Shown here piece after piece: positions 6,213 to 43,381 of a stretch of 44,261 nt of DNA. A model generated the notes under the pieces. The model had not been told where the DNA came from. It saw nothing but the letters and a program-made list of their open reading frames with translations, and made no database searches. The stretch is from the sequence record PQ433351.1; one strand, given 5' to 3'. The DNA comes from Escherichia phage vB_Ec-G9. Position numbers and translations under genes: made by a program. Within the stretch, counting starts at the first letter, position 1. The number at the start of each line of letters is the position of its first letter.

Positions 6213-6269
6213 GTTATACTCAAGGTCACTTACGAGTGGCCTTTATGAATAACTTAACTGGAGAGTATT

Positions 6270-6530
6270 ATGATTAAATCACAGAAGTATTTCTCAACTA
6301 AAGATCGTAAGGTAGATTTTGAAATCAAAGTTTGGGAAGACGGACACATTACTATTATTTACGAAGGTAAAGGTTCTAATGGTATGATGCTACGTAGATG
6401 CCGTACATTCACAAAGAAAGAATGTATGCATATGTCTGAATGCATGTTTCTTTACATCATTGCTGATGATATTAAAGGTATGAAGCTAATTGTATCTCTA
6501 CCTTTAATACCTAAATCTTTGTTAGGTTGA
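6270..6530 (+). CDS. hypothetical protein (86 aa)
   Basis: ORF with RBS GGAG upstream. Confidence 0.5.
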   Translation: MIKSQKYFSTKDRKVDFEIKVWEDGHITIIYEGKGSNGMMLRRCRTFTKKECMHMSECMFLYIIADDIKGMKLIVSLPLIPKSLLG

Positions 6531-6551
6531 TTTACTGGACACTATAGAAGG
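6531..6551 (+). promoter_or_regulatory. phage RNAP promoter
   Basis: TTTACTGGACACTATAGAAGG. Confidence 0.8.
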
Positions 6552-6616
6552 AAAGCCTAGGTAATCTAGGTTTATAAGGTAGTATGGGTAATTAAGTAAA
6601 TATAGGAGATATAAAT

Positions 6617-6994
6617 ATGTCAATGGTGACTACTCTGGTATTCGTAGCTCAATACTTTCGTGGTTTGGCTAACAAGTTCAAAGCTAAGGCTATCAAAGCT
6701 ATTGAGTCTCGCATTGAAGCAGTACAGGCAGAGCAGTTTGAAGTTGAAGAACATCGTAGTTCTCAAATGATTGACTGCCACAATCGCTACTATGCATCTC
6801 GTGATGACCTTAATGCACGTCAAGTCAAAGAGGTAGAAGAGATGATGGCACGTCACCAGCAAGAGCGAGACAATCTGAAGGCAGACTTTGAAGAGAACAA
6901 AGCATCCATTGCACTGGTACATCAAGCTGCATCTGACAGCCTGAAGAAAGAGATTGTTATGCTGGAGATTGAACTGGACAATCTGACCAAATAA
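6617..6994 (+). CDS. hypothetical coiled-coil protein (125 aa)
   Basis: RBS AGGAG upstream; charged heptad-like sequence. Confidence 0.6.
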   Translation: MSMVTTLVFVAQYFRGLANKFKAKAIKAIESRIEAVQAEQFEVEEHRSSQMIDCHNRYYASRDDLNARQVKEVEEMMARHQQERDNLKADFEENKASIALVHQAASDSLKKEIVMLEIELDNLTK

Positions 6995-29129: not shown

Positions 29130-29324
29130 ATGATTAACTCCGAACTGGTAGATAGTGGTGTGAAGCTTGCGCCACCTGCACTCGTATCAGGTGGGTACTT
29201 CCTCGGTATCAGTTGGAATAATTGGGTGTTAATAGCAACATTCATTTATACCGTGTTGCAAATTGGGGACTGGTTTTATAATAAGTTCAAGATTTGGAGG
29301 GAGAAGCGTGAGCGTACACAATAA
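29130..29324 (+). CDS. class II holin (T7 gp17.5-like)
   Basis: ELVDSGVKLAPPALVSGGYFLGIS...IYTVLQIG closely parallels T7 holin ELIKAAPIVGTGVADVSARLFFGLS...AYTVVQIG. Confidence 0.8.
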   Translation: MINSELVDSGVKLAPPALVSGGYFLGISWNNWVLIATFIYTVLQIGDWFYNKFKIWREKRERTQ

Positions 29325-29607
29325 ACATGCAGCTACAGAGGACGAGGTTGGCATTCTGCATGGTGCTATTACCAAAATCTTCAATAAGAAAGCACAGGCA
29401 ATACTGGACACTATAGAAGAAGACCCTGATGCAGCATTACATTTAGTGTCTGGTAAGGATATTGGTGCGATGTGTAAGTGGGTTCTTGATAACGGCATTA
29501 CCGCCACACCTGCTGCACAGCAGGAAGAGTCCAAGTTATCTAAGCGCCTCAAGGCTATCCGAGAGGCATCCAGTGGTAAGATAATTCAATTCACTAAGGA
29601 GGATTGA
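29308..29607 (+). CDS. terminase small subunit (positional call)
   Basis: GTG start with RBS GGAGGGAG; between holin and large terminase as in T7 gene 18. Confidence 0.55.
   Translation: MSVHNKHAATEDEVGILHGAITKIFNKKAQAILDTIEEDPDAALHLVSGKDIGAMCKWVLDNGITATPAAQQEESKLSKRLKAIREASSGKIIQFTKED
29401..29422 (+). promoter_or_regulatory. phage RNAP promoter embedded in small terminase coding region
   Basis: ATACTGGACACTATAGAAGAAG; encodes LDTIEE in frame. Confidence 0.6.
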
Positions 29608-31505
29608 TGGCTAAGGCAAGAGAATCACAAGCGGAGGCTCTTGCCAGATGGGAGATGCTACAGGAGTTACAGCAGACCTTTCCTTACACAGCGGAAGGTT
29701 TGCTTCTCTTTGCAGATACAGTTATCCATAACTTGATTGCAGGCAACCCTCATCTGATTCGTATGCAGGCTGATATCTTGAAGTTCCTATTCTACGGACA
29801 TAAGTATCGCCTCATCGAAGCGCCTCGTGGTATCGCTAAGACAACACTATCAGCAATCTATACGGTATTCCGTATTATCCATGAACCGCATAAGCGTATC
29901 ATGGTTGTATCCCAAAACGCCAAGCGAGCAGAGGAAATCGCAGGTTGGGTAGTTAAAATCTTCCGTGGCCTAGACTTTCTTGAGTTTATGCTACCAGACA
30001 TCTACGCAGGGGACCGTGCATCCGTTAAGGCGTTTGAGATTCATTACACCCTACGTGGTAGTGATAAGTCTCCTTCTGTATCCTGTTACTCAATCGAAGC
30101 AGGTATGCAGGGTGCTCGTGCTGATATTATTCTAGCGGATGACGTAGAGTCGATGCAGAATGCTCGTACGGCAGCGGGCCGTGCCTTGCTTGAGGAACTG
30201 ACTAAGGAGTTTGAATCTATCAACCAGTTTGGGGATATCATTTACCTTGGTACACCTCAGAACGTAAACTCTATCTACAACAACCTACCTGCTCGTGGTT
30301 ACTCTGTTCGTATCTGGACTGCGCGTTACCCTTCAGTAGAGCAAGAGCAATGTTATGGCGACTTCCTTGCACCTATGATTGTTCAAGATATGAAGGACAA
30401 CCCAGCACTTCGCTCAGGGTACGGGTTGGATGGTAATAGTGGTGCACCTTGTGCCCCTGAAATGTATGATGATGAAGTCCTGATTGAGAAGGAAATCTCT
30501 CAGGGTGCTGCTAAGTTCCAGCTTCAGTTCATGCTTAACACTCGCATGATGGATGCTGACAGATACCCATTACGCCTGAACAATCTAATCTTCACCTCGT
30601 TTGGTACAGAGGAAGTCCCTGTGATGCCTACGTGGAGTAATGATTCCATAAACATCATTGGTGATGCACCTAAGTATGGTAACAAGCCTACGGATTTCAT
30701 GTACAGACCTGTAGCTCGCCCATACGAATGGGGTGCTGTCTCCCGCAAGATTATGTATATTGACCCTGCGGGTGGTGGTAAGAACGGAGATGAGACGGGT
30801 GTAGCCATCGTATTCCTGCACGGCACATTCATTTATGTGTATCAGTGCTTTGGTGTACCTGGTGGATACCGAGAGTCGTCCCTGAATCGCATTGTGCAGG
30901 CCGCAAAGCAGGCGGGTGTTAAAGAGGTATTCATTGAGAAGAACTTTGGTCATGGCGCGTTTGAGGCGGTAATTAAGCCGTACTTTGAACGAGAGTGGCC
31001 TGTAACTCTGGAAGAGGATTACGCCACCGGACAGAAAGAGTTGCGTATCATTGAGACGCTGGAGCCGCTCATGGCAGCCCATAGGCTTATCTTCAATGCA
31101 GAGATGGTGAAGTCAGACTTCGAGTCGGTACAGCACTATCCGCTTGAACTACGCATGTCCTACAGTCTTTTCAATCAAATGTCGAACATAACGATTGAGA
31201 AGAACAGCCTCCGGCACGATGACCGCCTAGACGCCCTGTATGGCGCTATACGGCAATTAACTTCTCAGATAGACTATGACGAGGTTACACGGATTAATCG
31301 CCTCAGAGCGCAGGAGATGCGCGATTACATCCATGCTATGAACACACCTCATCTACGCAGGGCAATGCTATATGGAGATTACGGTACTGAGCGAAGAGTG
31401 ACCAACACTTCCGTAGCGATGCAGCAGCGAGTTTACGGGCAGAACTACCGAAATAAATCGGCAAGCAGAAATACACTTTCTGCAAGGATTTCAAGGACTT
31501 ATTAA
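29607..31505 (+). CDS. terminase large subunit
   Basis: ATPase motif region GHKYRLIEAPRGIAKTT; size about 630 aa; position. Confidence 0.9.
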   Translation: MAKARESQAEALARWEMLQELQQTFPYTAEGLLLFADTVIHNLIAGNPHLIRMQADILKFLFYGHKYRLIEAPRGIAKTTLSAIYTVFRIIHEPHKRIMVVSQNAKRAEEIAGWVVKIFRGLDFLEFMLPDIYAGDRASVKAFEIHYTLRGSDKSPSVSCYSIEAGMQGARADIILADDVESMQNARTAAGRALLEELTKEFESINQFGDIIYLGTPQNVNSIYNNLPARGYSVRIWTARYPSVEQEQCYGDFLAPMIVQDMKDNPALRSGYGLDGNSGAPCAPEMYDDEVLIEKEISQGAAKFQLQFMLNTRMMDADRYPLRLNNLIFTSFGTEEVPVMPTWSNDSINIIGDAPKYGNKPTDFMYRPVARPYEWGAVSRKIMYIDPAGGGKNGDETGVAIVFLHGTFIYVYQCFGVPGGYRESSLNRIVQAAKQAGVKEVFIEKNFGHGAFEAVIKPYFEREWPVTLEEDYATGQKELRIIETLEPLMAAHRLIFNAEMVKSDFESVQHYPLELRMSYSLFNQMSNITIEKNSLRHDDRLDALYGAIRQLTSQIDYDEVTRINRLRAQEMRDYIHAMNTPHLRRAMLYGDYGTERRVTNTSVAMQQRVYGQNYRNKSASRNTLSARISRTY

Positions 31506-33192: not shown

Positions 33193-33270
33193 TAAGATAG
33201 CGCCGTTCTTTTGAGCGGCCTATTACTAGCCAATCTTCATAGGGAGGGTTGGAAAGTAATAGGAGATAGC

Positions 33271-35169
33271 ATGGCTAAATTAACCAAACCTAATACTGAA
33301 GGAATCTTGCATAAAGGACAATCGTTGTATGAGTACCTTGATGCGAGAGTTTTAACATCAAAGCCGTTTGGTGCTGCAGGTGACGCCACTACTGATGATA
33401 CGGAGGTTATAGTTGCTTCATTAAACTCTCAGAAAGCTGTCACAGTCTCAGATGGTGTATTCTCTAGCTCTGGTATTAATAGTAATTACTGTAACTTAGA
33501 CGGTAGGGGTAGTGGCGTGCTAAGTCACCGTTCCAGTACAGGTAACTACTTAGTATTTAACAATCTACGTGCAGGTCGCTTAAGTAATATTACGGTAGAA
33601 AGTAATAAGGCGACTGATACAACTCAGGGACAGCAGGTATCTCTTGCTGGTGGAAGTGATGTTACTGTAAGTGACGTTAACTTCTCAAACGTTAAAGGTA
33701 CTGGTTTCAGTTTAATCGCATACCCTAATGATGCGCCACCTGATGGACTTATGATTAAAGGCATTCGAGGTAGCTATTCCGGCTATGCTACTAATAAGGC
33801 AGCCGGGTGTGTACTTGCTGACTCCTCAGTTAACTCCCTCATAGATAACGTCATTGCTAAGAACTACCCTCAGTTCGGAGCAGTAGAGCTGAAAGGTACA
33901 GCCAGTTATAACATAGTCAGCAATGTTATAGGGGCAGACTGCCAGCATGTAACTTACAACGGTACAGTAGGGTCAATAGCTCCCTCTAACAACCTTATCA
34001 ATGGGGTAGTGGCTAATAATCCTAAATATGCAGCGGTTGTTGCAGGCAAAGGTAGTACCAACTTAATCTCAGATGTGCTTGTAGATTTCTCAATCTCTGA
34101 TGCTAGTCAGGCTCACGGTGTTACAGTAGAAGGCTCTGATAACGTAATAAGCAATGTGCTTATGTCAGGATGTGATGGTACTAACTCTTCAGGACAAGCT
34201 CAAACTGCTACAATTGCGCGCTTTATAGGTACAGCTAATAACAACTATGCGTCTGTATTTCCTAGCTACAGTGCTACAGGTGTTATTACTTTCGAATCAG
34301 GTTCTACCCGTAACTTCGTAGAGGTAAAGCATCCGGGAAGGAGAAACGACCTTCTCAGTACTGCTAGTGCTATTGACGGTGCAGCTACTATTGACGGCAC
34401 TAGTAATAGTAACGTAGTGCACGCACCTGCCTTAGGGCAGTACATAGGTAGTATGTCAGGTAGGTTCGAATGGCGGATTAAGTCCATGTCACTCCCTTCA
34501 GGCGTTCTTACTTCTGCTGATAAGTACAGAATGCTTGGGGATGGTGCTGTGTCATTAGCTTTAGGTGGTGGCACTTCTTCTCAAGTTCGCCTATTTACTT
34601 CTGATGGTACTTCTCGGACAGTGTCCCTCACCAACGGTAACGTGCGTCTTTCTACCAGTAGCACAGGCTTTTTGCAGTTAGGTGCTGATGCAATGACCCC
34701 AGATAGTACTGGTACATACGCATTAGGTTCCGCCAGTCGAGCATGGTCTGGCGGTTTTACTCAAGCAGCATTCACTGTTACCTCAGATGCTCGGTGTAAA
34801 ACAGAACCTCTTACTATCTCAGATGCCTTACTGGATGCTTGGTCTGAAGTTGACTTTGTGCAGTTTCAGTATTTGGATCGTGTTGAGGAGAAGGGTGCAG
34901 ACTCAGCTAGATGGCACTTTGGCATCATAGCTCAGCGAGCTAAGGAGGCTTTCGAACGACACGGTATAGATGCACATCGCTATGGCTTCTTGTGCTTCGA
35001 CAGTTGGGATGATGTATACGAGGAAGATGCCAATGGCTCTCGTAAACTGATTACACCAGCAGGTTCCCGCTACGGTATTCGTTACGAGGAAGTACTGATA
35101 TTAGAGGCTGCGTTGATGCGGCGGACTATTAAGCGTATGCAGGAGGCACTAGCTTCCCTGCCTAAGTAA
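33271..35169 (+). CDS. tailspike 1 with beta-helix body and C-terminal intramolecular chaperone (peptidase S74-like) domain
   Basis: RBS AGGAG before ATG 33271; repetitive Ser/Thr/Asn/Gly-rich beta-helix-like body; C-terminal ~110 aa block (DARCKTEP...WHFGIIAQRAKEAF...GIRYEEVLILEAA) resembles the auto-cleaving chaperone domain of endosialidase/K5-lyase tailspikes, from memory. Confidence 0.7.
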   Translation: MAKLTKPNTEGILHKGQSLYEYLDARVLTSKPFGAAGDATTDDTEVIVASLNSQKAVTVSDGVFSSSGINSNYCNLDGRGSGVLSHRSSTGNYLVFNNLRAGRLSNITVESNKATDTTQGQQVSLAGGSDVTVSDVNFSNVKGTGFSLIAYPNDAPPDGLMIKGIRGSYSGYATNKAAGCVLADSSVNSLIDNVIAKNYPQFGAVELKGTASYNIVSNVIGADCQHVTYNGTVGSIAPSNNLINGVVANNPKYAAVVAGKGSTNLISDVLVDFSISDASQAHGVTVEGSDNVISNVLMSGCDGTNSSGQAQTATIARFIGTANNNYASVFPSYSATGVITFESGSTRNFVEVKHPGRRNDLLSTASAIDGAATIDGTSNSNVVHAPALGQYIGSMSGRFEWRIKSMSLPSGVLTSADKYRMLGDGAVSLALGGGTSSQVRLFTSDGTSRTVSLTNGNVRLSTSSTGFLQLGADAMTPDSTGTYALGSASRAWSGGFTQAAFTVTSDARCKTEPLTISDALLDAWSEVDFVQFQYLDRVEEKGADSARWHFGIIAQRAKEAFERHGIDAHRYGFLCFDSWDDVYEEDANGSRKLITPAGSRYGIRYEEVLILEAALMRRTIKRMQEALASLPK

Positions 35170-35254: not shown

Positions 35255-36967
35255 ATGCTTCAAAGATTAAGTGCTTACTTGGTGAAGTACAAGAGTAAAC
35301 TAACAGGTACTATTGAGCGCCTGCTATCTGATAAACTATCGGATACAATAGATGTTGCGGATTTTGGAGTTAATCCATCCTCTAATGACAACAGGCAAGC
35401 CCTTCAAGCTGCATTCAATGCGGTCAGACTGCTAGGCGGTGGTACTGTAGCAGTCACTAAAGCTGGCGAATATAAACTCAGTGGTACTGTTGAGATATTT
35501 GCTAATACACACTTCAAGGTTGCTAAAGGTGTAACATTTGTACGTGACTACGAAACAGGAGATACTCTATTCAGATTATCACAAGGGCAAGCTAGTAATG
35601 TAACAGTCAGTGGAGGTATCTATGAAGGCAATGGTCACACTAAGGGAGATACACCTTTTGTAGTATTTGCATCTACTAGTAATAATGATTTGAAGTTTGA
35701 AGGCATAACAGTTAACAATGTAGTGGACTACCACGCCATAGATTTAGCAGATTGGAACAACGTAGTTATTCGTGATTGTAAATTCCTAGGGTTTAAGAAT
35801 ACAGGCAGTCGTAACTTCTCAGAGGCTATACAGTTAGACCCAGGACTTATTACAGTAGGTCGCTATGTGCAGTCTAGTGGTTTACTGGTAGAGAATTGCT
35901 ATGCTGGCCCAAACCTTGATTCTGGATTTGGCGGGTATGGTGCTCTAGTAGGGAATCATGCATCAGCTTATGGTGTTCAAGATAACAACATTAGAATCCT
36001 AAATTGCACTACAGATGGTGCGCTCTTTGCAGGTGTACGTGTATTTAACTGGAAAAACTGGACAGTACGTGGTTGCACCTTTAGAAACTCTAATGCAAGA
36101 GGTGTTCATGTTACACCTGTCTCCTCTCAAACTAAACCGCAAGGAACTCGACAAGGTAGTGTTGTAGATTGTACTTTTGATGGCGTAAGAACACCAGTGC
36201 TAATTGCTGCACCATCTTGGCCTTTTACCGATATTAGTGACATTTGGCATGACCATATTGAAATTTCTAATAATATTATGATCCTCACAGAGGATGTATC
36301 CTATGGTGTAGATGCAAGGTGGTGTAAGAATTTAATTGTAAAAGGTAATACAGGCTCTGGTGGCTTAGGGTTAATCGGTTTACGCTTTGGGACAAAGTAC
36401 CACATCGAAGGTAATACTTGGGAAAACGGAAGAGGTAGTGGGATTTGGTTAAGTGAGTCTGATGCTACTACATTCATTGGTACTGGTTTATCAGGAGAAG
36501 GTATACTTAGTCGTAATATCTTCTCTAAATTAGGGCAACATGGTATTCATGTAAACTGCAAGGTTGGCGGTCTAGTGATTAAGGCTAATAATATGAAGGA
36601 AGTATCTACAGCTGAAGCAGGTAGGCACTTCATTAGCATAGACACAGGAGCTAACAACATCCTAGTAGAGGGTAATATTGGAGTAGATGGAGAAAGCCCT
36701 AACAAGCCAAGCCTTGGTATTAGTGTTACTTCTTCTTGCTCCAATATTAAACTAATTGGCAATGATTGCTATGGTACGCAAGCACCTCAGGATAACCAAG
36801 GAGTCGGTTCTAGTACGGTGATTGTTTATGGACTAAATGGCAATCCTACAACTTTAGGCGTAGGTGCACCTGTAGGCTCTTTAGCAACTAATATCAATGG
36901 GTCTGGTGGTAGTGCATTGTACGTTAAAAAATCTGGTACTTCTGCTAAAGGCTGGGTTGCAAAGTAG
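35255..36967 (+). CDS. tailspike 2, right-handed beta-helix (pectate-lyase-like depolymerase fold)
   Basis: Strong RBS AAAGGAGG; repeated NxxV / GNxG beta-helix-like motifs; no chaperone domain. Confidence 0.75.
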   Translation: MLQRLSAYLVKYKSKLTGTIERLLSDKLSDTIDVADFGVNPSSNDNRQALQAAFNAVRLLGGGTVAVTKAGEYKLSGTVEIFANTHFKVAKGVTFVRDYETGDTLFRLSQGQASNVTVSGGIYEGNGHTKGDTPFVVFASTSNNDLKFEGITVNNVVDYHAIDLADWNNVVIRDCKFLGFKNTGSRNFSEAIQLDPGLITVGRYVQSSGLLVENCYAGPNLDSGFGGYGALVGNHASAYGVQDNNIRILNCTTDGALFAGVRVFNWKNWTVRGCTFRNSNARGVHVTPVSSQTKPQGTRQGSVVDCTFDGVRTPVLIAAPSWPFTDISDIWHDHIEISNNIMILTEDVSYGVDARWCKNLIVKGNTGSGGLGLIGLRFGTKYHIEGNTWENGRGSGIWLSESDATTFIGTGLSGEGILSRNIFSKLGQHGIHVNCKVGGLVIKANNMKEVSTAEAGRHFISIDTGANNILVEGNIGVDGESPNKPSLGISVTSSCSNIKLIGNDCYGTQAPQDNQGVGSSTVIVYGLNGNPTTLGVGAPVGSLATNINGSGGSALYVKKSGTSAKGWVAK

Positions 36968-36978
36968 TAGGAGGTTGA

Positions 36979-37128
36979 ATGCCATTAATCAAATCAGTCA
37001 AGCAAAGTGCTGTACGCCAGAACACAGAAGAGCTTATTCAATCAGGACGTGACCATAAGCAAGCTTATGCGATTGCCAAGGATGTACAACGTCGTGCTAT
37101 GAAGAAACCTTCTGCATCTTCTGCGTAA
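36979..37128 (+). CDS. hypothetical small basic protein (49 aa)
   Basis: Strong RBS AGGAGG; below ORF-track cutoff. Confidence 0.4.
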   Translation: MPLIKSVKQSAVRQNTEELIQSGRDHKQAYAIAKDVQRRAMKKPSASSA

Positions 37129-37154
37129 GCAGGTTAATATCTTAGGAGGTAATT

Positions 37155-37616
37155 ATGGAAGTTTGGAGGCCTATTGCTGGTATACCAGATTACATGGTTT
37201 CCTCCTTTGGTCGTGTTAGATCTCATAAAAGAGGTAAGGTTACTATACTAAACCCTCCGCACGACAAAGGAGGTTATCGTAATGTTGTGCTACGTGTTAA
37301 TGGTGAAAAGATAAATCGCAAGGTACATAGGCTTGTGGCAGAGGCTTTCTTACCTAACCCTCACGGTTTACCTCAAGTAAATCACAAGGATGAAGTAAGA
37401 GACAATAATCATGTAAGTAATCTGGAGTGGTGTGATTGTGCATACAACGTAGATTACTCTCAAGCAGCTACTTATACTGTGATGTGCCCTAAAGGTAATA
37501 TCTTAGTAGTAAGGAATGTGGCTAAGTTTTGTAGGGAAAACGGATTAAGCAGTGGTTCTTTTACAGATATGCTTAAGGGAAGACGTAAGCAACATAAGGG
37601 TTATCGCTTAGTGTAA
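37155..37616 (+). CDS. HNH homing endonuclease (NUMOD4 + HNH)
   Basis: WRPIAGIPDYMVSSFGRV (NUMOD4-like) and VNHKDEVRDNNHVSNLEW (HNH). Confidence 0.8.
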   Translation: MEVWRPIAGIPDYMVSSFGRVRSHKRGKVTILNPPHDKGGYRNVVLRVNGEKINRKVHRLVAEAFLPNPHGLPQVNHKDEVRDNNHVSNLEWCDCAYNVDYSQAATYTVMCPKGNILVVRNVAKFCRENGLSSGSFTDMLKGRRKQHKGYRLV

Positions 37617-37669
37617 TACTTAGTGAGAGGGCTATACATGCCAAGTGGAAAATTTGATATGTATATGCG

Positions 37670-37980
37670 TCAAGTGTCTCGCCCTCGCCCTCGCCGGGTT
37701 GTCCCCATAGGGTGGCCTGAGGGAATCCGTCGAAGACGGGCAGGGCTGATGTCCTCCTTGGCTAGTACAAGGGAAGACCGAGGGAACGCCTAGGACGGCC
37801 TAGGGAATGGTTTAGTGGCGGACAAGGTGATTGCCTTAGTGAAGCCTCTTAGTACATTCCTGAGGCCATTCAGGGCGTTTATGAGGCATTGACAGGGTGG
37901 GCGTGGGTGGGCTATCTGTTCGTTTCGTTCACTCCGCTTGCGCTACGTTCACTCGCTCACGTGTACCTTAGGTTGTTCCT
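37670..37980. other. GC-rich non-coding segment; candidate terminal-repeat / genome-end region
   Basis: No ORF of 60 aa or more on either strand in 37617-38418; composition unlike flanking genes; short direct repeat CGTTCACTC twice. Confidence 0.3.
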
Positions 37981-37990
37981 TGATGGATAG

Positions 37991-38093
37991 CTTAGGTTAG
38001 CCTTAGTGGACTACCTTAGTTATAACCTTAGTGCTTATCTTAGTAATAGCTTAGTAGTGTACCTTAGTAAGTCTTAGTGTCTTCTCTTAGTGA
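37991..38093. repeat. array of about 9 short [CT]CTTAG[GT] heptamer-like repeats at about 12-bp period
   Basis: GCTTAGG, CCTTAGTG, CCTTAGTT, CCTTAGTG, TCTTAGTA, GCTTAGTA, CCTTAGTA, TCTTAGTG, TCTTAGTG; further scattered copies to 38410. Confidence 0.8.
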
Positions 38094-38238
38094 TTGCACA
38101 TGCAAGCATGTAAGATGCCATTAGGTCGCGGTCGGTAGACCGCTAAAGAAAGAGAATAGTAATAAGATGCAGTAGGAGGAACACCAGAAACCTAGCCAAC
38201 CTAGCCTATCCTAGCTCTGTATCTATTGCTTTTCCTTA

Positions 38239-38254
38239 GTCTCACATGTTAGAC
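38239..38254. repeat. palindrome variant GTCTCACATGTTAGAC (copy 5)
   Basis: One half-site base changed. Confidence 0.75.
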
Positions 38255-38288
38255 AACCTAGCTTATTCTTAGTGATGATAACTTAGTG

Positions 38289-38317
38289 TTGACAAGATAA
38301 TCTTAGTGTAATACTAT
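38289..38317 (+). promoter_or_regulatory. host sigma70-type early promoter candidate
   Basis: TTGACA - 17 bp - TACTAT. Confidence 0.55.
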
Positions 38318-38389
38318 GCATCACGTAGGCGGTGCTGAGGCACCTAGTAGCCAGCTAGTAAGGCATACGAAGAGACTAGCGCTTACATT

Positions 38390-38401
38390 GCTCTTTAACA
38401 A
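38390..38401 (+). promoter_or_regulatory. boxA-like antitermination element (copy 1)
   Basis: GCTCTTTAACAA, extended TTGCTCTTTAACAATTTG, identical to E. coli rrn boxA core. Confidence 0.6.
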
Positions 38402-38460
38402 TTTGCTTAGTGTAACCTATGTATGCCGTGGTTAATTACTTATTGAATGAGGGATTAACT

Positions 38461-38640
38461 ATGACATTAAACAACCGTGAACTATCCGTTCTCTTCACTC
38501 TGTTGTGCTACATGATTCGTAACAACGAATTGCTTACAGATGACGAGTTGGCACTGTATCACCGCTTTCTTAACGAAGGTTGGACCGATACAGTTAATCA
38601 ATACCGTAACATGATAGATGAGTTGAGGGAGGGTAAATAA
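38461..38640 (+). CDS. early hypothetical protein (59 aa)
   Basis: RBS GAGGG before ATG 38461; ORF-track start 38419 lies inside an inverted repeat and lacks an RBS. Confidence 0.55.
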   Translation: MTLNNRELSVLFTLLCYMIRNNELLTDDELALYHRFLNEGWTDTVNQYRNMIDELREGK

Positions 38641-38864
38641 TGTATCAACATGAGGTATTCTTTGAATCAGCTAGCGAAGCTATTCGCTTCCGTGATGATA
38701 TGATGCAAGCTGGTGTAGGCGTTGATGTGTATCACTATTTGATAGATTACGACACTGAATATCACCGAGTTACCTTAGTATCTGAGTATGACAACCAAGT
38801 CATTACTGAGTATCTAGGCAGTGAAGATTACGATTACGATGAAGTAATCACGACAAATCTCTAA
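38640..38864 (+). CDS. early acidic Asp/Tyr-rich protein (74 aa)
   Basis: RBS GAGGGAGGG; ATG overlaps upstream stop; acidic C-terminus EDYDYDEVITTNL. Confidence 0.6.
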   Translation: MYQHEVFFESASEAIRFRDDMMQAGVGVDVYHYLIDYDTEYHRVTLVSEYDNQVITEYLGSEDYDYDEVITTNL

Positions 38865-38872
38865 ATTAACTG

Positions 38873-38901
38873 TTGACAGCCACGGCATACAAGGTTACAT
38901 T
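38873..38901 (+). promoter_or_regulatory. host sigma70-type early promoter candidate
   Basis: TTGACA - 17 bp - TACATT. Confidence 0.5.
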
Positions 38902-38934
38902 AAGCATCAAGACGGCGACGTCTTTAAACATCCC

Positions 38935-38946
38935 GCTCTTTAACAA
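38935..38946 (+). promoter_or_regulatory. boxA-like antitermination element (copy 2)
   Basis: CCGCTCTTTAACAAGATG. Confidence 0.55.
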
Positions 38947-38993
38947 GATGGCTAGTGTCTTGATAGGCTAACTGACTAACTAAGGTAATTATC

Positions 38994-39104
38994 ATGAAAG
39001 GTTTAATTTGTGTAGAACGTATGGTCAATGGTAAACTTGAAATATTACCACTGGAAAACCAATCTAGCTTCAAAGAGTGGTATGGCTGTTTCTCACTGAT
39101 TTAA
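38994..39104 (+). CDS. early hypothetical small protein (36 aa)
   Basis: ATG 38994; weak RBS; flanked by boxA copies and a short inverted repeat. Confidence 0.3.
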   Translation: MKGLICVERMVNGKLEILPLENQSSFKEWYGCFSLI

Positions 39105-40753: not shown

Positions 40754-43381
40754 ATGCAAGACTTACACGCTATTCAACTTCAACTTGAAGAAGAAATGTT
40801 TAACGGCGGTATCCGTCGCTTTGAAGCGGACCAACAGCGCCAGATTGCATCCGGTAATGAATCAGACACGGCATGGAATCGCCGCTTATTGTCCGAGTTA
40901 ATTGCGCCAATGGCTGAAGGTATTCAGGCATACAAGGAAGAGTATGAAGGTAAAAGAGGCCGTGCACCGCGTGCATTAGCTTTCATTAACTGCGTAGAAA
41001 ATGAAGTGGCAGCGTATATCACGATGAAAATCGTTATGGATATGCTGAACACGGATGTAACCTTGCAGGCTATAGCCATGAATGTAGCTGACCGCATTGA
41101 GGACCAAGTACGTTTTAGCAAGCTGGAAGGTCACGCCGCCAAATACTTTGAGAAAGTTAAGAAGTCACTTAAGGCAAGTAAGACTAAATCATATCGCCAT
41201 GCGCACAACGTAGCGGTCGTGGCTGAGAAGTCAGTAGCTGACCGTGACGCTGATTTCTCTCGCTGGGAGGCGTGGCCTAAAGATACCTTGCTACAAATCG
41301 GTATGACCTTGCTAGAAATACTGGAAAATAGTGTATTCTTCAATGGTCAGCCTGTCTTTCTTCGCACCTTGCGCACTAATGGTGGCAAGCATGGCGTTTA
41401 CTACTTACAGACTAGCGAACACGTAGGTGAATGGATAACTGCATTTAAAGAGCACGTAGCTCAGCTGAGTCCAGCCTATGCACCTTGCGTTATTCCTCCG
41501 CGTCCGTGGGTTTCTCCGTTTAATGGTGGCTTTCACACCGAGAAGGTGGCGAGTCGTATTCGTCTGGTTAAAGGAAACCGCGAGCACGTCCGCAAGCTGA
41601 CCAAAAAGCAAATGCCAGCGGTTTACAAGGCTGTTAACGCTTTGCAGGCGACTAAGTGGCAGGTTAATAAAGAGGTTTTGCAGGTAGTAGAGGACGTTAT
41701 CCGTCTCGACCTTGGTTATGGTGTGCCTTCCTTTAAACCACTCATCGACCGTGAGAACAAGCCAGCTAATCCAGTGCCGTTAGAGTTCCAGCACCTGCGA
41801 GGCCGTGAACTTAAAGAGATGCTAACGCCAGAACAGTGGCAAGCTTTTATAAACTGGAAAGGAGAATGTACCAAGCTGTATACCGCTGAAACTAAGCGCG
41901 GAAGCAAGTCGGCGGCGACCGTTCGCATGGTAGGACAAGCGCGCAAGTACAGCCAGTTCGACGCGATTTATTTCGTGTATGCACTGGATAGCCGTTCACG
42001 CGTTTATGCGCAATCTAGCACGCTCTCTCCGCAATCAAACGACTTAGGCAAGGCATTGCTCCGTTTTACCGAAGGGCAGCGTCTTGATAGCGCTGAGGCG
42101 CTTAAGTGGTTTTTGGTGAACGGGGCGAATAACTGGGGTTGGGATAAGAAAACTTTTGACGTGCGCACCGCTAACGTGCTGGATAGCGAATTTCAAGACA
42201 TGTGCCGCGACATTGCAGCCGACCCGCTGACCTTCACTCAATGGGTAAATGCTGATTCCCCTTACGGCTTCCTTGCATGGTGCTTTGAATATGCGCGTTA
42301 TCTGGATGCACTGGATGAAGGCACGCAAGACCAATTCATGACGCACCTACCCGTCCATCAAGACGGTAGTTGCTCTGGTATCCAGCACTATAGCGCGATG
42401 TTACGCGATGAAGTAGGTGCGAAAGCAGTAAACCTTAAGCCTTCTGACTCCCCTCAAGATATTTATGGCGCGGTTGCGCAGGTTGTTATCCAGAAGAATT
42501 ACGCCTACATGAATGCAGATGATGCAGAGACTTTCACATCTGGAAGCGTCACACTTACAGGTGCAGAACTGCGTAGCATGGCTAGTGCGTGGGATATGAT
42601 AGGAATCACTCGCGGCCTGACCAAAAAGCCCGTAATGACACTACCTTATGGCAGCACACGTCTAACCTGCCGTGAATCAGTGATTGATTATATCGTTGAT
42701 TTGGAAGAAAAAGAGGCCCAACGAGCTATTGCCGAAGGGCGGACGGCGAATCCCGTGCACCCTTTTGATAATGACCGCAAAGACTACCTTACACCTGGTG
42801 CAGCCTACAACTATATGACGGCTTTAATTTGGCCTTCTATCTCTGAGGTTGTTAAAGCTCCTATAGTGGCGATGAAGATGATTCGCCAGCTTGCACGTTT
42901 CGCAGCTAAAAGGAATGAAGGGTTAGAATACACCTTGCCAACTGGCTTCATCTTGCAACAAAAGATAATGGCTACCGATATGCTCCGTGTATCCACTTGC
43001 TTGATGGGTGAAATCAAGATGAGTCTACAGATTGAAACTGATGTAGTGGATGAAACGGCAATGATGGGCGCTGCCGCTCCTAACTTTGTTCACGGGCACG
43101 ATGCTAGTCACCTTATATTAACGGTATGTGACCTTGTTGATAAAGGGATTACATCTATCGCAGTAATTCATGATTCTTTTGGCACTCATGCAGGCCGTAC
43201 AGCCGATCTACGCAACAGCTTAAGGGCAGAAATGGTGAAGATGTATCAAGGCCGTAATGCACTGCAAAGCCTGCTAGATGAGCACGAAGAACGCTGGTTA
43301 GTTGATACAGGAATCCAAGTACCAGAGCAAGGAGAGTTTGACCTTAACGAAATCTTAGTATCTGACTATTGCTTCGCATAA
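40754..43381 (+). CDS. single-subunit DNA-dependent RNA polymerase (T7/SP6 type)
   Basis: [39 protein letters not shown] and C-terminal SDYCFA match T7 RNAP catalytic and C-terminal motifs; 875 aa. Confidence 0.95.

Follow-up and report, generated by a model that had tools for sequence, protein, structure and literature searches.

The region at 37617–38460 of Escherichia phage vB_Ec-G9 (accession number PQ433351.1; the whole stretch of 44,261 nucleotides that was analysed is hereafter called the window) is almost certainly the concatemer junction, together with the left-end non-coding leader, of a K1-5/SP6-type phage, i.e. of the T7 supergroup. Combined with the proposal that a short-repeat array in this leader serves as a packaging platform, this junction identity provides what we consider the best explanation overall, and a likely one. 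The end region is real but ordinary and represents an already described kind of feature, since the K1-5 and SP6 genomes, published long ago, contain it and its layout is homologous to the T7 ends. It is a further instance of the highly conserved organization of T7-group genome ends, i.e. TCTC...CCCCATAGGG, ATCTGTT and a lineage-specific array. The original prediction had read the region as fitting concatemer-junction or packaging signals, and this reading is supported by the terminal repeat, its ATCTGTT boundary and the T7-type terminases.

Genome identity and the non-coding region

When the repeat and end region was compared with GenBank phages by BLAST, 102 records matched, nearly all of them K1-5/SP6-type podoviruses (Vectrevirus and Zindervirus), with 84–95 % identity among the records listed. 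The whole window aligned with K1-5 (accession number AY370674) in collinear matches of 88–99 % identity, with 92–95 % over most of its length and likewise 92–95 % within the end region. Since the last and first bases of the window adjoin in K1-5 (6258–6684) and the alignment runs from end to end, the window is, as judged by homology, a rotated complete genome, i.e. the circularly permuted genome of a K1-5-like Vectrevirus. According to the alignment with K1-5, the rotated record opens in the helicase gene and its two terminal repeats have been collapsed to one copy. With the assembly rotated and short of one 238-bp repeat copy, the virion DNA should measure about 44,499 bp. For annotators, this means that the true genome ends would lie at about 37677 (left) and about 37914 (right), and that ORF calls within the repeat would be spurious.

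As in T7, the window harbours T7-type terminase genes, i.e. one for a gp18-like small subunit (29263–29607; Pfam DNA_Packaging_2, 5e-16) and one for a gp19-like large subunit (29604–31505; Pfam Terminase-T7_RNaseH-like, 1.6e-35). Together with a single-subunit RNA polymerase gene (40754–43381), which is collinear with gp7 of K1-5, these are the genes that go with a junction of the T7 supergroup. The small terminase is 100 % identical to that of K1-5 and 77 % identical to that of SP6, and both of these phages carry the CTTAG[TG] motif described below. In the right-end flank, a gene encoding an HNH homing endonuclease (37155–37616) is found in place of the gene 49 region of K1-5.

The stop codon of this HNH ORF (37616) and the first early gene, whose ATG is at 38461 (38461–38640, + strand), are 845 bp apart; this gene, a homologue of K1-5 gene 1, closes the non-coding region (37617–38460). 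This is the longest ORF-free stretch on the + strand of the window, and it still comprises 625 bp when a 56-aa ORF located within it is counted, the next longest stretch being 374 bp. About 670 bp without ORFs had originally been predicted here; the ORF-free stretch is real and has no equal on the + strand, but its size was understated. The 56-aa ORF (GTG start, 37623–37793) is the sole ORF in the region, and its frame is also open in K1-5. However, it has no Pfam match, it starts in flanking sequence that the relatives do not share and GC-rich DNA opens frames by chance; it was therefore rejected as a gene. That the region serves to encode a small protein or, alternatively, a structured RNA is extremely improbable, and the evidence on the RNA is considered with the hairpins of the leader.

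The GC content is 0.50–0.62 over 37650–37999 (in 100-bp windows) versus 0.37–0.45 on either side, which bears out the GC-rich block that had been placed at 37670–37980. By its position, this block is mainly the terminal repeat itself, which has a GC content of 0.59 versus 0.45 for the genome. The block had been left undivided before; its parts are the terminal repeat, an RNA polymerase pause signal and a linker.

The terminal repeat and its boundaries

Based on homology with K1-5 and on the starts of database records, the direct terminal repeat spans 37677–37914 on the + strand (238 bp, present as a single collapsed copy). The K1-5 record has an exact 234-bp repeat at both of its ends that aligns to 37679–37914 of the window, and we set the repeat here at 37677–37914 by adding the two preceding bases found in other records. 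In fact, eight independent GenBank records, two of which (K1-5 and VEc3) exist as RefSeq copies as well, start at 37677–37679 of the window, and the annotations of RoP3a and Mt1B1_P10 place repeat_region features there. The identity and boundaries of the repeat are in this way established by homology. Termini mapping elsewhere, which had been named beforehand as evidence that would speak against the original prediction, were not found, the homologous ends mapping to 37677–37914. On the same footing of homology, the window would have the short exact direct terminal repeat (about 150–400 bp) at both virion ends that is typical of such junctions; the repeat lengths are 238 bp here, 234 bp in K1-5, 174 bp in SP6 and 160 bp in T7. 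The 238-bp segment at 37677–37914 would thus be found at both ends of the virion DNA, and once between units in replicating concatemers. Within it, CTTAGT occurs at 37835 and 37848.

The left edge of the repeat carries the signature TCTC-N22-CCCCATAGGG (37677–37712, + strand), which emerged when the first 70 nt of K1-5, SP6, Era103, T7 and T3 were aligned with the window from 37677 onwards. All five of these phages have (TC)TC at the very terminus, and CCCCATAGGG is located at nt 24–36 of the genome in K1-5, SP6, Era103 and T7, with T3 having the variant CCCCCCCCATAGCCCC. The window therefore has the conserved left end of the group, i.e. a TCTC terminus with CCCCATAGGG about 25 nt further in, and its mature left end is probably the left edge of the repeat, TCTC...CCCCATAGGG.

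Directly abutting this boundary is a conserved flank (37647–37676, + strand), which reads GGAAAATTTGATATGTATATGCGTCAAGTG in the window and CAAAATTTTGATRTAGGCGTGTG... in most relatives. Its AAAAT(T)TTGAT core and the G/T-rich tail directly before TCTC are common to 13 distinct relatives, and T7 has an A/T-rich stretch in this place. The flank may contribute to cleavage at the left end. A pair of inverted repeats spanning the left repeat boundary (37622–37638 and 37675–37691) was also considered and, at 76 % complementarity, found to be too weak. Further to the left, the unique right-end flank contains two CTTAGT copies at 37607 and 37619 (37607–37624, + strand), i.e. 53–70 bp before the terminal repeat, and a CTTAGG is also found at 37141, ahead of the inserted HNH gene. 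Most relatives have at least one CTTAGT about 55–75 bp to the left of the repeat, irrespective of the upstream gene, and three CTTAGT-type copies are found farther upstream of the repeat in K1-5 and SP6. The right-hand short repeats of T7 are the counterpart of these copies.

At its right boundary, the repeat runs into ATCTGTT (37914–37920, + strand), the class II pause/termination core for T7-type RNA polymerase (the 'CJ' signal), whose first base overlaps the last base of the repeat (37914). This core is strictly conserved in class II signals, a natural copy of which is located at the T7 concatemer junction (bioRxiv 10.1101/2021.01.11.426313 and 10.64898/2026.02.12.705533; PMC11617373). In the window it appears as T-ATCTGTT (37913–37920), in keeping with the A, C or T that precedes a class II signal at the right edge of the repeat. 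A single + strand copy of ATCTGTT is present in each of the window, K1-5, SP6 and T7, versus 2.3–3.1 copies expected in each, and it is always located at the repeat boundary. All of the 21 relatives covering the site have GGGCTATCTGTT (GGGCTAATCTGTT in RoP3a), and in further relatives, taken with 20-kb flanks, the only ATCTGTT is the one preceding the CTTAGT array.

Evidence for the role of this site comes from T7, where an insertion screen identified two essential positions at the end of the left repeat, 142 and 162, while most genome-end loci tolerated insertions (PMC11482910). Position 162 falls inside the ATCTGTT of T7 (161–167). The T7 RNA polymerase pauses at ATCTGTT when crossing the concatemer junction, and, as reported by Lyakhov and McAllister and by Zhang and Studier, polymerase mutants that do not respond to this signal show no concatemer processing. 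From the pausing of T7 at ATCTGTT and its essential position 162, we infer by analogy that 37914–37920 is a pause site marking the right-end cut. On its way through from the late genes, the phage's own single-subunit RNA polymerase would be expected to pause here, as in T7, where the pause is tied to concatemer processing and to packaging by the gp18/gp19-type terminase.

There is also a clear difference from T7 and T3, in which phiOL and phiOR are annotated on either side of the junction. In the window, a search for the phage-polymerase promoter consensus found none between 33171 and 43475, the nearest matches being at those two positions, and the junction is thus not flanked by phage promoters of the phiOR and phiOL kind. 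Since K1-5 and SP6 share this lack by homology, a junction flanked by phiOR and phiOL is a trait of the T7/T3 subgroup and not of the whole group. Because there is no phage promoter near the junction, the T7 model using phiOR is not transferable unchanged.

The pause signal is followed by a variable linker (37921–37963, + strand) of 43 bp with 70 % C+T. It holds both copies of CGTTCACTC, at 37926 and 37946, a sequence which had been said to occur twice in the GC-rich block. Linker length and sequence vary among the relatives; it stays C/T-rich, however, and opens with a T-rich run (CGTTT or CCTTT). The two CGTTCACTC copies are not conserved and are absent from K1-5, which differs from the window in its linker sequence as well as in having the gene 49 region at the site of the HNH gene. 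T7, in contrast to the SP6 group, has no pyrimidine-rich linker between the pause site and its array.

The CTTAG[TG] array and its conservation

The array (37967–38091) consists of ten CTTAG[TG] units and one degenerate unit, CCTTGA (37978), with a mean period of 11.9 bp and with all units on the + strand. The ten units start at 37967, 37991, 38002, 38015, 38027, 38039, 38050, 38063, 38073 and 38086, giving spacings of 24, 11, 13, 12, 12, 11, 13, 10 and 13 bp, with CCTTGA at 37978 filling the 24-bp gap. An array of about nine units at 10–13 bp spacing had been predicted at 37991–38093; the array is real, but there are ten units, and the first of them lies at 37967. The prediction of more copies up to 38410 proved accurate, with five dispersed CTTAGT counted at 38235, 38268, 38282, 38302 and 38406 (38235–38411, + strand). 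Tandem-repeat analysis, one of the checks proposed at the outset, likewise detects the array, which Tandem Repeats Finder calls with a two-unit period of 23–24 bp.

Judged from the rest of the genome, 0.08 units would be expected in 130 bp, compared with the ten observed (Poisson P ~4e-18), and every other 130-bp window of the genome contains at most four copies. Genome-wide, CTTAGT occurs 53 times versus 29.6 +/- 4.7 times in shuffled sequences, with the whole excess located in the end region. Over 37100–38800, all 22 copies lie on the + strand and the - strand has none (binomial P 5e-7), i.e. the terminal repeat is flanked by short-repeat arrays of the same orientation.

For comparison with relatives, we combined 19 IMG/VR loci, fetched via a hairpin to the right of the array, with K1-5, SP6, RoP3a, Mt1B1_P10 and the window, resulting in 24 sequences. 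Every one of these (Vectrevirus and Zindervirus) has 7–14 CTTAG[TG] copies on the same strand upstream of the hairpin and no more than one on the opposite strand, and the positions of the arrays are nearly superimposable. Absence of the repeats from close relatives with the same packaging system, which had been put forward in advance as a reason to abandon the prediction, is thus contradicted by all 24 sequences. A search with a small-terminase alignment for more distant relatives yielded no sequences outside this close group. When 22 distinct sequences were aligned, the mean majority frequency was 0.94 in motif columns versus 0.735 in spacer columns (Mann–Whitney p 6e-14), and two relatives (L012 and L013) lack 24–26 bp, i.e. 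two units. Therefore, the motif is under selection, while the spacer sequence and the exact copy number are not, and individual units are dispensable.

The loss of whole units in these two relatives could also be taken to mean that the array arose near the genome end through slippage during replication or through recombination, as a by-product without a function of its own. In the same direction, T7-like Yersinia phages (fPS series) carry 11–34 repeats in the interval from the left terminal repeat to the first phage promoter, and their number is a source of length differences between close relatives (PMC5923468); these phages belong to another subfamily with other motifs and were compared by published description only. 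The tolerance of most T7 genome-end loci to insertions (PMC11482910) would fit such a by-product as well. However, neutral slippage is unlikely because the motif is conserved above the spacers (0.94 versus 0.735, p 6e-14) and the strand bias is 22 to 0. Further arguments against it are the persistence of the array across two genera with only 77 % identity between their small terminases, as well as the presence of an array at this place, with its own motif, in every T7-group lineage examined. Taken together, we regard a by-product as quite improbable.

The comparison with the left-end arrays of SP6 and T7 relatives that had been called for showed the same layout in SP6, T7, T3 and Era103. K1-5 and SP6 (AY370674 and NC_004831, respectively) have the elements of the window in the same order, i.e. 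a repeat starting with TCTC/TCGCC...CCCCATAGGG, GGGCTATCTGTT at its right edge, a pyrimidine-rich linker and 8–10 CTTAG[TG] units, further followed by the palindrome, the GCGGTC hairpin, the CCTAGC triplet and the TTGACA promoter. When T7, T3 and Era103 were read directly, the terminal repeat was followed by (A)TCT(G/A)T and then by an array in all three, with the array motif depending on the lineage: CCTAAAG in T7, C[CT]TAAAG in T3, and CCTTATG together with GGCTAGGCTA in Era103.

The analogy to the short repeats beside the T7 terminal repeats, drawn in the original prediction, holds in that T7 also has a terminal repeat, ATCTGTT and a CCTAAAG array. More precisely, T7 has TCTC...CCCCCATAGGGGG at its left end, and the only ATCTGTT of its coding strand marks the right repeat boundary. 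Directly after ATCTGTT there are about 12 short units on the same strand, with fewer inside the repeat and in the right-end flank, and these are then followed by early promoters for the host polymerase. In contrast, the T7 motif is CCTAAAG instead of CTTAG[TG], and the T7 spacing is wider and more irregular. The T7 short repeats are known as SRL and SRR, names that Dunn and Studier reportedly gave them in their 1983 T7 sequence paper. A literature search on these repeats, covering sources other than the primary SP6 and K1-5 genome papers, found nothing relevant. We regard the CTTAG[TG] array as the SP6-group version of these CCTAAAG repeats, with fewer copies inside the terminal repeat and in the right-end flank here too.

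Same-orientation direct repeats in non-coding DNA, beside A/T-richer DNA, are also reminiscent of the iterons of a replication origin, and a secondary origin lies close to the left end of T7. Yet units of 6–7 bp at 12-bp spacing are far shorter than iterons, and the K1-5-type gene set includes no initiator gene; the combination of iterons of about 17–22 bp with a nearby cognate initiator is thus missing here. Origins of the T7 group depend on phage-polymerase promoters, and there is none between 33171 and 43475. Because of the unit size, the lack of an initiator and the lack of nearby phage promoters, a left-end origin with iterons is very unlikely.

Possible roles of the array and other leader elements

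Regarding function, we propose that the array could act as a redundant, orientation-specific, multi-site platform to which protein binds for cutting and packaging. The likeliest partner would be the oligomeric small terminase, as about 11 sites at 12-bp spacing would correspond to roughly one turn of DNA around the ring. With packaging in the direction known from T7, the array might give a termination-side signal to the motor arriving from the right. The cleavage site of lambda has repeated small-terminase sites beside it, together with a distinct termination element that acts downstream. The likeness to cosB and cosQ of lambda is a functional analogy only, as lambda has cohesive ends instead of terminal repeats and shares neither sequence nor protein homology.

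The circumstantial evidence for a small-terminase site is that the array lies beside both cut sites and that its motif is common to phages with 77–100 % identical small terminases. The strict orientation and the conservation of only the 6–7 bp motif likewise favour a platform, whereas the dispensability of single units, the lack of helical phasing in a 12-bp period and the position of some copies at a predicted host promoter, which would suit a transcriptional role just as well, are points against it. No experiment that we know of has established what the T7 short repeats or the CTTAGT array do. While the terminase may bind the array, which would make it a putative packaging signal, we put forward its role as a terminase platform as a tentative possibility.

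It is tempting to speculate further that each motif of the array is read by one subunit of the small-terminase ring, that the platform stops the motor in a directional manner and positions the terminal cuts, and that the same applies to the short repeats of the T7 group, although we consider this extended version doubtful. If true, the ring-platform reading would give a function to the T7-group repeats, which, as far as we are aware, have been without an assigned one since the T7 sequence was published. Given its clean distinction between conserved motif and variable spacer, the SP6/K1-5 group would be a convenient system for tests of array function.

An alternative is that the CTTAGT copies serve early infection and not packaging, either as sites for a host factor or for host RNA polymerase or by modulating the early promoter or DNA entry. 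The array is located 290–415 bp from the left end, in the few hundred base pairs that enter the cell first, and precedes the first strong sigma-70-like promoter. This predicted early promoter for the host polymerase, TTGACA-17-TACTAT (38289–38317, + strand), has 10 of 12 consensus matches and is conserved in K1-5, RoP3a and Mt1B1_P10. One of the five dispersed CTTAGT copies abuts its -35 hexamer (CTTAGTG-TTGACA) and another lies inside the promoter spacer, an arrangement that is kept in SP6 for both copies; the spacer of the T7 A1 promoter also holds a TTAAAG. On the other hand, ten copies form a tight array that contains no promoter consensus, and copies are also found in the terminal repeat and in the right-end flank, the parts that enter the cell last. 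Moreover, a 12-bp period provides no helical phasing for bending, and we know of no E. coli DNA-binding protein with a CTTAG[TG] site. A role in early infection is therefore unlikely, but it has to be taken as a serious rival to the terminase platform, because some of the copies sit at the predicted host promoter and single units are dispensable. A second candidate host promoter, TTGCAC...TAAGAT (38094–38116), was ruled out, as its spacer comprises only 11 nt.

Between the array and the early promoter, the leader contains a 14-bp palindrome, ACATGC-AA-GCATGT (38098–38111, + strand), and the hairpin GCGGTC-GGTA-GACCGC (38128–38143, + strand). The palindrome has a second allele in relatives, ATAGCT-AA-AGCTAT, which was found in 9 of 15 sequences; three of the five pairs change on both sides and stay paired. 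The hairpin is invariant among the relatives, partly by construction because it was the anchor used for fetching them. These two small hairpins (38098–38143), one of them with covariation, are what speaks for a structured RNA, but they lie outside both the array and the repeat and match no Rfam family. An Rfam scan of 37000–39000 at a permissive threshold gave only two chance snoRNA matches below the gathering score, and a known structured RNA was rejected on this basis. Further downstream follow three CCTAGC units at 9–10 bp spacing (38191–38215, + strand), with a fourth at 38257, and these units are kept in K1-5, SP6, RoP3a and Mt1B1_P10.

Pause signal at the repeat boundary

On the + strand of the window, which is the coding strand, the pause-site sequence ATCTGTT (37914-37920), i.e. 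the core of the class II signal for T7-type RNA polymerase, occurs only once, at the boundary of the terminal repeat, versus about three copies expected, while the opposite strand carries three. Likewise, K1-5, SP6 and T7 have no coding-strand ATCTGTT besides the copy at the repeat boundary. This pattern would fit selection against class II pause signals in the interior of the genome.

Within the terminal repeat, 18 nt ahead of the pause-site TATCTG, lies a −35-like hexamer, TTGACAG (37889-37895), which is kept in K1-5, SP6 and Era103. According to a recent preprint, the T7 junction signal is able to serve as a host promoter.

Palindrome, hairpin and short repeats beyond the CTTAG array

Directly past the array of CTTAG[TG] units lies a 14-bp palindrome, ACATGC-AA-GCATGT (38098-38111). 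Nine of 15 relatives have ATAGCT-AA-AGCTAT in its place, and SP6-like sequences have ATAGC-TAC-GCTAT. Among these alleles, three of the five pairs are altered on both sides with pairing retained, and the palindrome may act as a hairpin or as a symmetric binding site. The alleles are discordant with the remainder of the alignment, suggesting that they were swapped by recombination.

It is followed by the hairpin GCGGTC-GGTA-GACCGC (38128-38143), which was invariant, partly by construction, as it was the anchor for fetching the relatives. Two copies of TAAGATGC lie 52 bp apart on either side of this hairpin (38111-38118 and 38163-38170). Both the hairpin and the TAAGATGC pair are kept in K1-5 and SP6. 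The combination TTGCAC...TAAGAT resembles a promoter, but was rejected given its spacer of just 11 nt. A second short-repeat family, CCTAGC, is present in three copies at 9-10 bp spacing (38191-38215) and a fourth at 38257-38262, and is retained in K1-5, SP6, RoP3a and Mt1B1_P10.

Right-end flank and tailspike genes

The right-end flank, i.e. the unique DNA to the left of the terminal repeat, harbours an HNH homing endonuclease gene (37155-37616, +) with NUMOD4, HNH_3 and I-HmuI NUMOD-like domains, whereas K1-5 carries gene 49 and three clustered CTTAG motifs at this site. The insertion is flanked by CTTAGG (37141) on one side and two CTTAGT (37607 and 37619) on the other, and the gene occurs at the identical position in phage LL11 as well. 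A 56-aa GTG ORF (37623-37793, +) spans the flank into the terminal repeat; K1-5 also has this frame open, and hypothetical proteins are annotated at this location in some GenBank records. No family match was found in Pfam, and the ORF is probably artefactual, a product of the high GC content.

The first tailspike gene (33211-35169, +; 652 aa, endosialidase-chaperone domain) is collinear with the K5 lyase gene of K1-5. In contrast, the second (35255-36967, +), encoding a 570-aa product with a right-handed beta-helix domain, differs from its K1-5 counterpart, the K1 endosialidase, and whole-window alignment left 35309-36961 without any K1-5 DNA match. This tailspike comparison suggests that the capsule specificity of the phage differs from that of K1-5.
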